Origin: an uncultured Acidobacteriota bacterium
Lineage (GTDB): Bacteria; Acidobacteriota; Blastocatellia; RBC074
DNA length: 64,000 nt
Assembly: GCA_963796275.1 (NCBI GenBank)
Contig: CAWCKY010000007.1
Coordinates: 832,001-896,000, forward strand
Reading direction: 5' to 3'
Shown: piece by piece, positions 169 through 59,100 of the stretch
Position numbering within the stretch: the first letter of the stretch is position 1
Layout of the letters: each line of letters starts with the position of its first letter
Notes under the pieces: model-generated
Seen by the model: the letters and a program-made list of their open reading frames with translations, nothing else
The model's database searches: none
What the model was told of the DNA's origin: nothing
Translations under genes and position numbers: made by a program

Positions 169-928
169 ATGATGATTGCAATCGCAAATCAGAAGGGTGG
201 TGTGGGAAAAACAACCACAGCGATCAACCTCTCGGCTGCTCTCGCTCTGCGGGGTAAAAGGGTTCTACTTGCAGAATCTGGATCCTCAAGCTAACAGCAC
301 AATCTCATTTATGGACTCGGATGAGATTGATGTTTCCATCTATGATATGTTAGTTGAGCCGTCAGTCCGATTCGATGATGTGGTTAAAAAGACGAAGATC
401 GAGAGACTGGATTTGCTGCCCTCACGTTTAAACCTCGCCAAACTCGAGGGAAAACTCGTGGGTGAACTGGACGCTCCGTTTCGTCTCAAGGACAAATTAG
501 ATTCCATCTGCCACCTCTATGATCTGATCATCATCGACACGCCTCCCACATTAGGTCTGATAACTGTCAACGCTTTGGTGTCGGCTACACATCTTATTAT
601 TCCTATACAGTCATCATATTTTGCCTTGGAAGGGACGGATGATTTGCTAGAGACGATAGAGCGGATCAAAGCGAGGCCTAATCCACAACTTGAGGTATTG
701 GGTGTTGTAGTAACGCTTCACGACCGGCGTACAACGCTTTCACGTGATATCTTCGATCAGATTTGTCAGGTCTTTGGCGATAAAGTATTTAAAACTACGA
801 TCTCGAAATCTGTGCGACTCGAGGAGAGTCCCGCATATAGAGAATCGATCTTCACATTCGCGCCCGCCTCGAGTGGGGCAAACGAATATTCCAAGCTATG
901 CGATGAGGTGATACGCCGTGTCAATTAA
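169..928 (+). CDS. parA: ParA/Soj family partition ATPase (one +1 frameshift at ~275, probably a sequencing error)
   Basis: ATG at 169 reads [21 protein letters not shown] (deviant Walker A). Deleting one A in AGAATCT (273-279) gives ADLDPQAN and joins ORF 176..928, which has IIDTPP (Walker B). Confidence 0.93.
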
Positions 929-1766
929 ACGTGGTTTGCCTGCTACTCTGAAGATGAGACATGACCGTCATTATGTGGAGGAGCTCTCTTCGCTCCGCGG
1001 TGGGCCGATCGGTCGAATGATTGCGATCGATCGTTTGGAACCAAATCCCAATCAACCGCGCATTGAAATCGGTGAATTGGATGAATTGATCGCTTCGATC
1101 AAAGAAAAGGGAGTTCTCGAACCTCTTCTAGTTCGTCCTTCGCAAGTCGGCGGCCGGTACATGATCATTTCGGGTGAGCGGCGTTATCGCGCCGCGAGAG
1201 AGGCTGGGTTGAGAGAAGTCCCATGCATCGAGATGGATGTAGATGACAGGGCAGTCGCCGAGATCGCGTTGATCGAAAACTTGCAACGAAAAGACCTCAC
1301 TCCTTTCGAAGAAGCTAACGGCCTGCAATTGCTCGTCGAACGGTTCGGATATACGCACGAGGATATAGCCCGCAAAATAGGCAAGGCTCGCACCACAGTC
1401 ACCGAAGCCCTGACGATCGCCACGATGCCGGCTGATGTCAAAGAACAGTGCCAACGCGCAGACATCTTATCCAAAACGCTCTTGCTGGAGATCGCAAGAC
1501 AGCCAAATCACGAGGCGATGACGGAGTTTGTCGGCCGCGTCGTGAAACAGGGTATGACGCGCGATGAGGCTCGCAAGGCGCGTAAAAATAAACAGGCACG
1601 GCCGCAGCCATTCATTTATCATTATGCCGCGCCCAATCGTGAGTACACGCTGGAGATCAAGTTTCGGCGCTCTTCCGTCACTCGAGAAGAATTGATCGGT
1701 TTGATGGAGGCTCTGGTTGATGAGCTGAAGTCTTCGCTTGACGATTCTTCTACCGAAGTTACGTAG
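918..1766 (+). CDS. parB: ParB/RepB/Spo0J family partition protein
   Basis: [23 protein letters not shown] (arginine patch), [11 protein letters not shown]; overlaps the parA stop. Confidence 0.93.
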
Positions 1767-2300
1767 AGTTTTAAATGGATCGTATCAACTTAATCACATG
1801 ATCCAAGATTCTGTTTTTTCGATCCGAATGACTGATCGTGGTCGTGTGAGATGCACGAGGACCGGGGTTAGACTCCTGATGAAATGTGGCGAGCTCGGCG
1901 AGTTGGCAGAAACAGGGATCGCGCATCGGCAGCCATTCATAAAAGCCACGCCTTTATGTAGTCGAGTTTAACGTTTTCAAACGGCCCATTTTTATTCATT
2001 ATTTGGGATAATGAAGTAATTTCCTTGCTCAACCTTTACCGCACTGGGCGGTATCAGGGAAGCGGTTATCAAACCGGCACTCTTTAACCTTACCGTATTT
2101 GCTGGAGAAAGGTCTCCGTAGTCGTTCATCCCCGCGTCACCATTCCATTGAAGCTTCGGTGATCTCGAGGCGGGAAGAACTACAATTACAGCTCCTGGTG
2201 ACGACCACCGGCTGCGAAACATGAACCGCAGGGTTGTCAGTTAAAACGTGGGTTTCGCGCTGAAGAATTCGCGGGAAACCTCCTTTTGAGATAGTTAAGG

Positions 2301-55537: not shown

Positions 55538-56119
55538 ATGGAAAACACACCTGCCGCCGACATTTTTGAAACGACACGGCTGCTGAAGGCGTGGAGCGAG
55601 GGGGACGAAATGGCGCTGGAGCGGCTGGTTCCTCTGGTTGACGCCGAGATGCGCCGCCTGGCGCGCCATTACCTGCGGCAGGAACGGCCCGATCACATCC
55701 TGCAAACGACAGCGCTAGTCAACGAAGCGTGGGTGAGGTTGATCAACTGGCCGGATGTGGGTTGGCAGAACCGCGCCCATTTCATCGGCCTAGCTGCACA
55801 ACTGATGCGTCGCGTCCTTGTAGACGAAGCGAGGCGGCGGCGCGCGCAGAAATACGGGGGCGACGCCGTGCAGGTTTCACTCGCCAACGCCGAAGGGGTG
55901 GCGCTCGAAAAGGGTACGGACCTGTCTGCGTTGGACGACGCGCTAAACGAACTGGCGGCTTTCGACGAGCGCCAGAGCAAGATTGTCGAACTACGTTTCT
56001 TTGGCGGGCTGAGCCTGGAGGAGATCGGCGCCGCGCTGAAGATTTCTCCACGCACGGTGCAGCGCGAATGGAGTCTGGCACAGGCGTGGCTTTACCGTGA
56101 GCTTAGGGGAGAGAAGTAA
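55538..56119 (+). CDS. ECF sigma factor of the kinase-associated type (TIGR02999-like)
   Basis: HILQTTALVNEAWVRL, WQNRAHF, VELRFFGGLS, TVQREW; TAATG overlap with the kinase. Confidence 0.9.
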   Translation: MENTPAADIFETTRLLKAWSEGDEMALERLVPLVDAEMRRLARHYLRQERPDHILQTTALVNEAWVRLINWPDVGWQNRAHFIGLAAQLMRRVLVDEARRRRAQKYGGDAVQVSLANAEGVALEKGTDLSALDDALNELAAFDERQSKIVELRFFGGLSLEEIGAALKISPRTVQREWSLAQAWLYRELRGEK

Positions 56120-59100
56120 TGGACGCGAAGCTGTGGGTGCAAATCAAGGAGGTCTATGATCGCGCGCTCGGTCTCCGCCGCGAAGAGCGCGAGCGCATTC
56201 TTGCTGAGGCATGCGCTGGCGACGCCGATCTTCGCCGTGAAGTCGAATCTCTGCTCGCCGCTCACGAAGACGCCGGAACATTCCTTCAAGCGCCCGCCGT
56301 CGAGGTTGCTGCTCGTGAAATTATCGCCGACCAATTTATATCTACCGTTACCGTAATCTCGTCTGCGGCGCCTAACCTCATCGGGCGGGAACTAGCGAAT
56401 TACAGAATCATTTCACTTTTGGCCAAGGGGGGGATGGGTGAGGTATATCTCGCACAAGACACATCCCTCAGACGCAAGATCGCGCTCAAGATACTCCCCA
56501 CTAAATTCACAGCCGATGAAGACCGGTTGAAACGTTTTGTGCAAGAAGCTCAGTCGGCATCCAGCCTCAATCACCCGAACATCATCACGATTTATGAGAT
56601 TGGATATGTCAACGATGTACACTTCATCGCCACGGAGTTTATTGACGGCCAGACGCTCCGCAAGCTGATCGCGGAATCGTGCCTTACACTTCGCGATGTT
56701 CTTGATCTCGCCACACAAATTGCCAGCGCTATGGCTGCCGCACACGCTGCGGGCATTGTGCATCGTGACATCAAGCCAGAGAACATTATGGTGCGCCCAG
56801 ACGGCCTGGCCAAAGTCCTCGATTTCGGCGTCGCCAAGTTGACGGAGGCACCCCCGACAATGATTGAGGCTCACCCTTCAATTGCTAATGAGTCGAGCAC
56901 CAAGTCCGGAATAATGGGGACGCCGCAGTACATGTCACCGGAGCAGGCGCTTGGGCAGAAGGTGGATACGCGCACGGACATCTTCAGTTTGGGCATAGTG
57001 CTCTATGAGATGATCACCGGAACCATGCCATTCGGGGGCGAGTCGATGGACGATGTGATCGCCGCGCTCCTCAGGAGCCGACCACTACCGCTGTCTCATT
57101 TCTTCCCCGGGGTACCACACGAGTTGGAGCGGATTGTTGAGAAGACTCTGCTCAAAGACCGTAGACTCCGATATCAAATCGTCAACGCCTTGCAACTCGA
57201 TCTCAAAAACCTCAAAGAGAACCTGGATTTTGAGGACCGACTGGCTGGCACCTACCGGCGGCGATTGCGGGATAGAATGATGGTTAAAACGAATGTCTAT
57301 TCGACGAGAGAAGAACTACAGCTGGAATCCACGGTGCGGAACCGCGAAGTCTCCGATAAACAACCTGTTTCCAACACCGAACATCTGCGCAAAGCTATCA
57401 ATCGGCACAGGCGCAACGCGCCGTTGATTCTGGCAGCGCTCGCCATAGTCACCTTCGGCCTTGTCTTTGGATGGCATAGAGGTATTGATATACAAGAAGT
57501 TGATGAGCAGCGAGCCGAGCCTTTTAAGACGATCAATATCATCCGTCAAACGAACACAGGAAAAGCCATCCGCTCTGCCATCTCCCCGGATGGTAAATAC
57601 ATTGTTTACGCGCTCAACGATGCCGGGCAACAAAGCCTCTGGCTTGGACAGGTGAATACTATGAATAGTACACCGATCGTGCCACCGGCCCCGGTCAATT
57701 ATCTGGGAATCACATTTTCGGGCGATGGCAGTTTTATTTATTACGTCAGGTCGGAGCCGGAGGGTGTGCTCTATCGCACACCCACACTGAGCGGCGCAGT
57801 GCGAAAGCTGCTTGTCAATGTGGACAGCCCGATCACTTTTTCCCCCGATGGCAAACAGGTCGCTTTTGTGCGCTTTGGTGGGGGATCAGCCAAGGGTTTC
57901 TTGATGATCGCACAAGAAGACGGCAGCAACGAGAAGACGCTCTCTGAGCTCAGCGATCGGAATATAATCCGCAAAACCGGTCCGGCCTGGTCACCTGATG
58001 GCAAGCTGATCGCCTGTGCCGTTGATAATCCTACTCGCGCTTCCCACACAGTGGTCGGTGTGCCCCTCGAGGGCGGGGCAGAAATACCGCTCACAACGCA
58101 GCAGTGGGCGGCTGTTGGACAGGTCGCCTGGTTGTCAGATGGCAGTGGTCTGCTTGTGGCGGCGGCAGAACGGGATTCGAATTTGATGCAGATTCTGGCA
58201 TATCTCCTATCCGGGAGGTGCAGCCCGTCGGGTAACTACTGACCTGAGCACATATTCAAATATCAGCCTGACAGCCGACTCCAGATCTTTTACCACCATC
58301 AGGACTGATCAGTTTATGAATATTTGGGTCGCGCCACCAGGAGGTGATGCCAGTCGCGCCGTCCAGATCACCGCCGGAGCGCAAAGGGTAGATGGGTTTC
58401 GCGGCCTGGTCTGGACGCATGATAACAAGATCGTCTACCGCACGATTCAGAATGGCAATCCCAACATCTGGATGATGAATTCGAGTGGGACGGGTAACAG
58501 GCAACTATCGAATGATGCCGATCAAAACCTTGATCCGACAGTCACACCCGATGGCCGATACATCGTCTGGTCGTCGAGCCCTGAAGTCAATCGCAACATC
58601 TGGCGCATGGAGTTGGACGGCAGAAGTCCTCAGAAATTGACCAATGGCCCTGGCGAATGGTTCCCGCAAATAACGCCCGATGGGAAGTGGCTGGTCTACC
58701 AGTCGCACGGTACCAAGGAGATCAATCGGGTTTTGAAGAAAGTCCCACTTATTGGCGGTGATTCTGTGCAATTGACTGACAAGGCGTCCTGGGCGCCGGC
58801 CCTTTCGCCTGATGGTAAAATGATCGCCTGTAACTATTATCCGAAAGCAGGAGCTCCGAACAAAATTGCAGTCATCTCGATTGATGGTGGCCCTCCTATC
58901 AAGGTCTACGAGGTTACGGGGGAAAATGATCGGCCCATCCGCTGGAAGCCGGATGGACGGGCGCTGGCATTTGCCGTCACGAAAGGCGGCATCTCTAACA
59001 TCTGGACCCAACCGATCGCGGGCGGCCCGCGAAGGCAATTGACGCAGTTCACCTCGCATCAAATCATCAATTTTGCCTGGTCACGCGATGGCCGGCAACT

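Follow-up and report, generated by a model that had tools for sequence, protein, structure and literature searches.

The window analysed here, a stretch of 64,000 nucleotides from the genome of an uncultured soil Acidobacteriota bacterium, raises the question of whether five of its genes, each interrupted by a frameshift within the same short palindrome, are really broken. The original prediction read the five lesions as one-base insertions in RGATCY, and the window letters do contain the five heptamers concerned, as follows:

Site 1, 273-279, plus strand: AGAATCT, that is, AGATCT with one additional A, breaking a parA-like ATPase gene (about 169-928).
Site 2, 8643-8649, minus strand: AGTATCT (in plus-strand letters), extra base 8645, breaking a conserved hypothetical gene (8099-10202, minus strand).
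Site 3, 23691-23697, plus strand: AGTATCC, extra base 23693, breaking a xerD-like tyrosine recombinase gene (22806-23805).
Site 4, 33191-33197, minus strand: AGTATCC (in plus-strand letters), breaking a TonB-dependent receptor gene (32810-36329, minus strand).
Site 5, 58190-58196, plus strand: AGATTCT, breaking a Ser/Thr kinase gene with a PD40 beta-propeller (56119-59158).

An intact GGATCC adjoins site 1 directly on its 3′ side.

Removal of one base yields AGATCT or AGATCC and a full-length protein at each of the five sites, and homology places every lesion in or on its heptamer (5/5), as predicted. At site 1, the DNA alignment with seven relatives (seven of ten loci were used, the three in reverse orientation being left out) contains a single gap, located in GA-ATC, and without the extra A the gene reads ..A D L D P Q.., matching the relatives; the Pfam AAA_31 match of the downstream ORF begins only at profile position 37. 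At site 3, a one-column gap at the T was found in all nine aligned relatives, the one from the same genus reading AG-ATCC. The search for sites 2, 4, and 5 in 25 relatives gave no usable DNA-level orthologue (no match or 25-53 bases; one 65%-identical stretch was also found and left unused), and these sites were placed by protein homologues or paralogs instead. At site 2, residues 1 to 510-514 of five homologues of full length (679-691 aa; the segment is 1-511 in three cases) align up to 8646, and the alignment restarts at 8644 with the immediately following residue; therefore, exactly base 8645 is extra. The paralog alignments of site 4 change frame between 33195 and 33187, with two subject residues in between, and the Pfam profile PF25183 is matched from 1 to 733 in one ORF and from 730 to 838 in the next. 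In those of site 5, the change of frame falls within 58190-58194.

None of the frameshifts is conserved in the sequences aligned. The extra base is absent from all aligned relatives at site 1 (7/7) and site 3 (9/9), in which the parA and xerD homologues are intact. The site 2 gene is unbroken in the five aligned homologues, most of the homologues listed being also 679-691 aa in length, and the paralogs aligned for sites 4 and 5 are likewise unbroken. Programmed frameshifting was ruled out by the lack of a common slippery context and by the unrelated nature of the genes, and an alternative genetic code by the lesions being frame changes, not stops. Homopolymer errors were also rejected, with no run of three or more bases at any of the five sites.

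Heptamers made of RGATCY and one added base number 270 in the window, vs. 263 expected, and are thus not enriched as such; intact RGATCY sites number 39. What is not random is that every frameshift located by homology in the window coincides with such a heptamer (5/5); the chance of this coincidence is about 0.01-0.02 per site, as roughly estimated from the 13,717 RGNATCY/RGATNCY sites in the 9.46 Mb genome. The motif was absent from the six other same-strand insertion-type junctions that were checked in the window:

912-928: insertion-type junction at parA/parB, no motif.
26159-26241, 45301-45347, 45710-45771, 46965-47044, and 62283-62347: five further insertion-type junctions, no motif.

By Pfam, the latter five look like borders between separate genes (a sigma factor and its neighbour, twice; HTH and M78 peptidase; PQQ dehydrogenase and cytochrome c), a reading that is not proven, three of the ORFs at these junctions having no Pfam match.

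Genome-wide, a plain k-mer enrichment taken over every ORF-junction interval carried too much noise, the intervals being mostly borders of neighbouring genes. In the insertion-type intervals, heptamers of RGATCY with one added base were counted 295 times, vs. 218.8 expected; the ratio was 1.09 for deletion-type intervals, and other NGATCN gave 1.04. This approach was replaced by paralog verification and by a coding-frame test. The former revealed 277 frameshifts in the 9.46 Mb genome, 185 of insertion type and 92 of deletion type. RGNATCY or RGATNCY was located at most 7 bases from the junction in 34 of the 185 insertion-type frameshifts, vs. a mean of 7.4 in ten shifted controls, and any heptamer of RGATCY plus one base in 50 (vs. 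18.2). The corresponding numbers were 28 vs. 28.3 for other NGATCN and 44 vs. 36.7 for homopolymers of at least four bases. The original prediction had held that the extra base can always be placed between the G and the A of GATC on one strand, and only that position class stood out (class P2, 34 vs. 7.4; P3, 5 vs. 4.3; P1 without G/C, 56 vs. 55.7 expected). The coding-frame test, which is separate from the paralog test and was run over all sites in the genome, showed a +1 switch at 72 of 4,408 confidently scored RGNATCY/RGATNCY sites, vs. 35.6 expected (p = 5e-8). The inserted base was T in 26 cases (vs. 8.8), G in 22 (vs. 6.2), A in 19 (vs. 12.6), and C in 11 (vs. 16.3). Both detectors thus bear out the enrichment at RGATCY that a genome-wide tabulation of frameshift contexts was expected to reveal. 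Applied to the five sites of the window, the coding-frame test detected one and the paralog test two.

The excess of RGATCY insertion cases amounts to 27-36 by the paralog and coding-frame detectors, and 5,456 intact RGATCY sites are left in the genome. RGATCY-linked cases are a minority of the insertion-type junctions (47/185, vs. 16.0 in controls), the majority of frameshift-like junctions being errors or real pseudogenes with other causes. On the contig that carries the window, five RGATCY-linked frameshifts fall in 58 kb of the window and only four more were found in the remaining 1 Mb with the two detectors, a local excess.

The original prediction had left the motif as RGATCY or GATC. 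Controls in which GATC was kept and the flanks were changed showed no excess (YG.ATCR, 83 vs. 84.5; RG.ATCR, 64 vs. 76.4; YG.ATCY, 51 vs. 50.1); therefore, the motif is RGATCY, and plain GATC was discarded. The same controls bear on a systematic bias of the basecaller or polisher for the k-mers around RGATCY, whether modified or not. Such a bias would agree with the low share of RGATCY sites that are hit, a few per cent, and systematic nanopore consensus errors unrelated to methylation are described in the cited part of PMC8011154. However, the excess needs both the 5′ R and the 3′ Y, one or neither flank giving none, and this palindromic requirement resembles recognition by a methyltransferase and is hard to obtain from a single-strand k-mer bias. 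In addition, CATG, likewise a short palindrome, forms another hot spot (31/185 vs. 9.9). We consider a k-mer bias unlikely.

Sequence data from other runs gave direct support at one of the five sites. The comparison with independent contigs took in site 3, sites 1, 2, and 5 lying outside the aligned stretch and no contig aligned to the window bridging site 4. A contig of 269 bases from the public run X1 (23664-23933) lacks base 23693 and is otherwise identical to the window. The 35 aligned contigs of this run, none less than 99% alike to the window, cover 20 kb; a single substitution and a single indel, namely the missing base 23693, set them apart from the window sequence. It must be considered that X1 may come from the same sample, and it represents independent data, not necessarily an independent organism. 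A more distant contig from run X3 also lacks the base. This agrees with the prediction that the genes are probably intact and the lesions motif-specific assembly errors, and the sites other than site 3 are presumably errors as well.

These contigs also count against real mutations, in which a site-specific cellular process, such as faulty repair after cleavage or nicking of RGATCY, would add bases and inactivate genes. Restriction-modification systems of the BstYI/XhoII type recognise RGATCY. The motif is under-represented in the genome (maximal-order Markov observed/expected ratios of 0.47 for AGATCT, 0.66 for AGATCC, and 0.81 for GGATCC), which would fit restriction pressure from a system with this recognition sequence, and independent read evidence concerns site 3 alone among the five. 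Unlike in such systems, no BglII/BstYI-like endonuclease domain (PF09195) was found in the genome search, at a genome completeness of 94.7%. BstYI-type cleavage between R and G leads to a 4-base fill-in duplication, not to a 1-base insertion between G and A. Moreover, such a process would need to disable dozens of further genes at once, together with the parA and xerD homologues, and the inserted base varies among T, G, and A. The Markov ratios of the heptamers were inconsistent (AGTATCT, 1.24; AGAATCT, 1.15; AGTATCC, 0.95; GGTATCC, 0.93) and were set aside as evidence. The original prediction had judged a real mutational process less likely, and with the site 3 contigs and the required loss of parA and xerD we regard it as highly improbable. 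An intermediate situation, in which RGATCY-directed nicking or restriction and error-prone repair add single bases beside the modified position, so that part of the population would carry the frameshifts and the long-read consensus would capture them, is scarcely to be expected; if true, it would mean that mutation at specific sites is linked to the motif of a restriction-modification system. Equally remote is a mixture of strains in the consensus of a metagenome bin, with the insertions as chimeric junctions or minority alleles. The apparent metagenome origin of the assembly (seven contigs, 5.2% contamination) and the presence of parts of the genome in soil-metagenome runs speak for it, but strain mixture produces substitutions and indels of larger size that follow no motif, and it cannot account for an excess limited to RGNATCY when the flank controls show none.

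Very probably, the five frameshifts are not mutations but errors in the consensus of an assembly made from long reads, arising at an RGATCY motif that would carry a modification. In the assembly, a few per cent of the RGATCY sites would contain one spurious base, in most cases T, G, or A, which as a rule separates the G of GATC from its A (on the opposite strand, the T from the C). The most likely cause would be a DNA methyltransferase of the organism that modifies RGATCY, the modified base distorting the long-read signal in such a way that the basecaller or the polisher adds a base. The reads would be long reads of native DNA; the seven contigs for 9.46 Mb and the ratio of 185 insertions to 92 deletions are only suggestive of long reads. 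Likewise, RGATCY would be methylated in the source organism.

As noted in the original prediction, the window contains no methyltransferase gene, and candidates were found elsewhere in the genome. The search for an enzyme acting on GATC or RGATCY revealed four beta-class N6/N4 methyltransferases (PF01555), the best with 167.9 bits (318 aa, SPPY motif IV), and two type I HsdM proteins (PF02384), while enzymes of Dam class (PF02086) and C5 type (PF00145) were not found, an absence that is not proven in a genome 94.7% complete. The four PF01555 genes are located on two contigs, at C3:934233-934940, C3:284694-285347, and C3:577708-577971, and at C4:1600286-1600588. The SPPY motif IV is more typical of N4-cytosine enzymes. 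The position of the insertion does not separate m6A from m4C because the 5′ side of the A is the 5′ side of the C on the other strand. NCBIfam matches fall well short of the equivalog cut-offs, and the closest solved structure is that of M.RsrI (E=2.6e-29); neither names a target sequence. No endonuclease neighbour was evident by eye at the three candidate loci with flanking ORFs listed.

Enzymes of the required specificity exist in other bacteria. According to the cited parts of the respective reports, m6A methyltransferases specific for RGATCY, strictly excluding other NGATCN, are M.CsaI of Chromohalobacter salexigens (PMC3526280) and an enzyme of Gemmatirosa kalamazoonensis, a soil member of the Gemmatimonadetes (PMC3974934). 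Unlike these, none of the candidates of the present genome could be assigned to RGATCY, and a Dam-class gene was not found. With regard to the errors, the cited part of PMC6591954 describes how consensus errors of nanopore assemblies concentrate in methylation motifs, such as Dcm CCWGG and similar ones. As in our case, these recur at one short motif and survive into the consensus, making false frameshifts or SNPs; they vanish with modification-aware data or models, to which the RGATCY case may be likened. However, methylation-linked nanopore errors are mostly substitutions, not insertions, in the cited portions of 10.64898/2026.01.14.699587 and PMC6591954, whereas here the error is an insertion, the motif is RGATCY, and only a few per cent of the sites are affected.

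In attention to the above, the five genes are probably intact, and the finding represents an artefact of a known kind that adds nothing new to the biology of the window. The annotation should list as intact the parA and xerD homologues, the TonB-dependent receptor, the Ser/Thr kinase, and the conserved protein of ~690 aa; by extrapolation, this artefact is likely to split about 70-200 additional genes of the 9.46 Mb genome. The case also shows that errors linked to a motif can take the form of insertions, which is relevant to polishing and to pseudogene counts. The context of false frameshifts points by itself, without signal data, to a probable methylation motif of this uncultured soil Acidobacteriota of Bryobacteraceae type, namely RGATCY and perhaps CATG, and the use of the finding lies in the correction of the annotation and in this hint to the methylome of the organism.

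The original prediction for this window held that its five frameshifts are one-base insertions in RGATCY, an artefact of a methylated motif affecting genes that are probably intact. All five heptamers were found at exactly the predicted coordinates, and a one-base insertion at each of them was borne out by homology, either to DNA relatives, protein homologues or paralogs.

The five insertions of the window and the homology evidence for each
Site 1, 273-279, AGAATCT: parA-like gene; DNA alignment with seven relatives, sole gap in GA-ATC
Site 2, 8643-8649, AGTATCT: extra base exactly 8645; five protein homologues of 679-691 aa
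Site 3, 23691-23697, AGTATCC: xerD-like gene; gap at the T in 9/9 aligned relatives
Site 4, 33191-33197, AGTATCC: TonB-dependent receptor; paralog frame change from 33195 to 33187, with two subject residues between
Site 5, 58190-58196, AGATTCT: Ser/Thr kinase with PD40 propeller; paralog frame switch within 58190-58194

For site 1, ten loci were retrieved and seven aligned, the three in reverse orientation being left out. Without the extra A the gene reads A-D-L-D-P-Q, as in the relatives, and the restored AGATCT directly adjoins an intact GGATCC. The Pfam AAA_31 match of the downstream ORF begins at profile position 37, so the Walker A part of the parA-like gene lies in a different frame. At site 2, the first 510-514 residues of the homologues (1-511 in three of them) align up to 8646 and the next residue resumes at 8644, which singles out the extra base. 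A same-genus relative reads AG-ATCC at site 3; at site 4 the PF25183 match is split between one ORF (profile positions 1-733) and the next (730-838), and the paralog at site 5 reads ..S-Q-I-W.. across the switch. No heptamer consisting of RGATCY plus one base was present at six other same-strand junctions of the window flagged as insertion type (those mended by removing one base). The parA/parB overlap accounts for one of these; the remaining five resemble boundaries between distinct genes according to Pfam, with three of their ORFs lacking a Pfam match.

Public sequencing runs containing parts of window 23600-33300 were found, and the contigs of four were compared over window 14001-34000, a stretch that takes in sites 3 and 4 of the five. 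The run designated X1 yielded 35 contigs, none of them less than 99% similar to the window, and all the differences listed for them came down to a single substitution plus a single indel. In this indel, base 23693 (site 3) is missing from a 269-base contig that spans 23664-23933 and shows no other difference. This base is also absent from a contig of X3, a run from a more distant relative, while no contig of the four runs bridges site 4. X1 is independent sequencing but not necessarily of an independent organism, as its sample may be the same as that of the genome. Real mutation as the origin of the inserted bases is contradicted at site 3, the one site of the five with independent data; it would also need the parA and xerD homologues, along with many other genes, to have been lost at the same time. 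In addition, window positions 15658 and 20996 are linked by 37 other letters in one X3 contig (relative 90-99% alike), and therefore the X3 organism lacks about 5.3 kb present in the window.

The genome consists of 9.46 Mb in seven contigs (C1-C7; the window is C7:832001-896000), with a G+C content of 53-55% and 5,456 intact RGATCY sites. The named homologues of one window protein come from Bryobacteraceae/Bryobacterales (Acidobacteriota). Frameshift context was tabulated genome-wide by three approaches. In the first, intervals were collected in which a one-base deletion would fuse a pair of ORFs, each with coding support and 300 bases or longer. The insertion-type intervals (n = 494) held 295 heptamers of RGATCY plus one base versus 218.8 expected; the ratio was 1.09 in deletion-type intervals (n = 475), and heptamers based on other NGATCN gave 1.04. 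In the second, 10,782 candidate junctions were compared by blastx with the genome's own ORFs and kept if one paralog was collinear across the frame change, which left 277 junctions, 185 of insertion type and 92 of deletion type. Patterns were counted within 7 bases of the junction and compared with the mean of ten shifted controls.

Patterns at the paralog-verified insertion-type junctions
RGNATCY/RGATNCY (extra base between G and A of GATC, either strand): 34/185, control mean 7.4
RNGATCY/RGATCNY: 22/185, control mean 8.8
RGANTCY: 5/185, control mean 4.3
Intact RGATCY: 16/185, control mean 2.5

RGATCY was enriched, and other NGATCN was not (28 vs. 28.3). Sites 4 and 5 were recovered in this set. 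Strain mixing, which might also yield insertions, does not predict such motif specificity. It must be noted that insertions outnumbered deletions twofold among the verified frameshifts of the whole genome; homopolymers of at least 4 bases were weakly enriched at insertion-type junctions (44 vs. 36.7) and runs of at least 5 at deletion-type junctions (13 vs. 5.1).

In the third approach, the best of six frames was determined for the 150 bases flanking every site to the left and to the right, both on the same strand. Among the RGNATCY/RGATNCY sites scored with confidence (4,408), 72 had a +1 switch versus 35.6 expected (p = 5e-8), and 31 a −1 switch versus 25.7. The inserted base was T in 26 (8.8 expected), G in 22 (6.2), A in 19 (12.6) and C in 11 (16.3). 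Site 2 alone of the five was recovered. The paralog and coding-frame sites lie on six of the seven contigs, all except the 18 kb C5. Given excesses of 27-36 and recovery of 1-2 of the five window sites, we estimate by extrapolation, not by counting, some 70-200 such insertions genome-wide, to be compared with the 5,456 RGATCY sites that are intact. Locally, five RGATCY insertions occur in 58 kb of the window (273-58196); across the rest of C7 (~1 Mb) these two detectors picked up only 4 more frameshift sites with RGNATCY/RGATNCY. Low read depth could account for this local excess.

A context bias independent of methylation is a possible but less likely cause of the insertions at RGATCY. Against it, controls keeping GATC with one or both flanks changed gave no excess (83 vs. 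84.5, 64 vs. 76.4, 51 vs. 50.1), and a second palindromic hot spot exists. The latter, CATG, lies within 7 bases of 31/185 paralog-verified insertion-type junctions versus 9.9 in controls (strand coordinates C7:1173-1175, C2:575314-575316 and C2:400235-400237, among others), and is possibly a second methylated motif. In one paralog pair, 92-95% identical, an extra T directly follows CATG. The CATG excess in the coding-frame test (103 vs. 50.2) is confounded by ATG start codons at gene borders. Single-base indels were also seen between copied sequences. C5 (17.9 kb) holds copies of genes that sit close to one end of C7 (C7:1173 and minus-strand coordinate 1068268, i.e., near plus-strand 3.1 kb). 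Their proteins are 88-95% identical, and this is probably a repeat or unresolved contig end; one of the indels between these copies lies 2 bases after AGATCT. A repeated element of C1 (1185821-1193289, and minus-strand 130035-138590) has several copies, 89-100% alike, differing by the presence or absence of one G beside AGCATGATCTC.

A search of the assembly for DNA methyltransferases, whose presence had been proposed, revealed four PF01555 (N6/N4) and two type I HsdM matches. The strongest PF01555 candidate (318 aa, C3:934233-934940) carries a TSPPY motif IV, and its nearest solved structure is M.RsrI. The NCBIfam matches of the candidates are far under equivalog cut-offs, and therefore no target is assignable to any of them. 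There was no match to PF02086 (Dam class), PF00145 (C5) or PF09195 (BglII/BstYI-type endonuclease) in a genome of 94.7% completeness, so that their absence is unproven. The locus C4:1598786-1602088 contains a 538-aa ORF that has a CxxC zinc-binding match alongside a partial one to N6/N4 methyltransferases; the C-terminus of this ORF looks odd and may itself be frameshifted. RGATCY is under-represented (observed/expected 0.47 for AGATCT, 0.66 for AGATCC and 0.81 for GGATCC), which fits selection by a past or present restriction system but is not specific evidence of it.

The errors require both degenerate flanks of the palindrome (R 5' and Y 3'), the position of the insertion is fixed while the inserted base varies, and the housekeeping genes broken here are intact in all relatives examined. 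Together with the absence of the extra base at site 3, this matches what a systematic consensus error would leave at the recognition sequence of a DNA methyltransferase. According to PMC6591954, consensus errors at methylation motifs are a known artefact class in nanopore assemblies, and RGATCY-specific m6A enzymes appear in PMC3526280 and PMC3974934. Methylation-linked errors are mainly described as substitutions in PMC6591954 and 10.64898/2026.01.14.699587, whereas insertions were found here, a somewhat unusual signature, though hardly an unexpected one where the motif formed no part of a basecaller's training. Methylation is the probable cause; since the insertion adjoins A on one strand and C on the other, its position fits m6A and m4C alike. 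In attention to the motif specificity across the genome, the intact relatives and site 3, the view that RGATCY is the seat of an artefact and that the genes are intact is well supported, and the frameshifts do not represent real biology.
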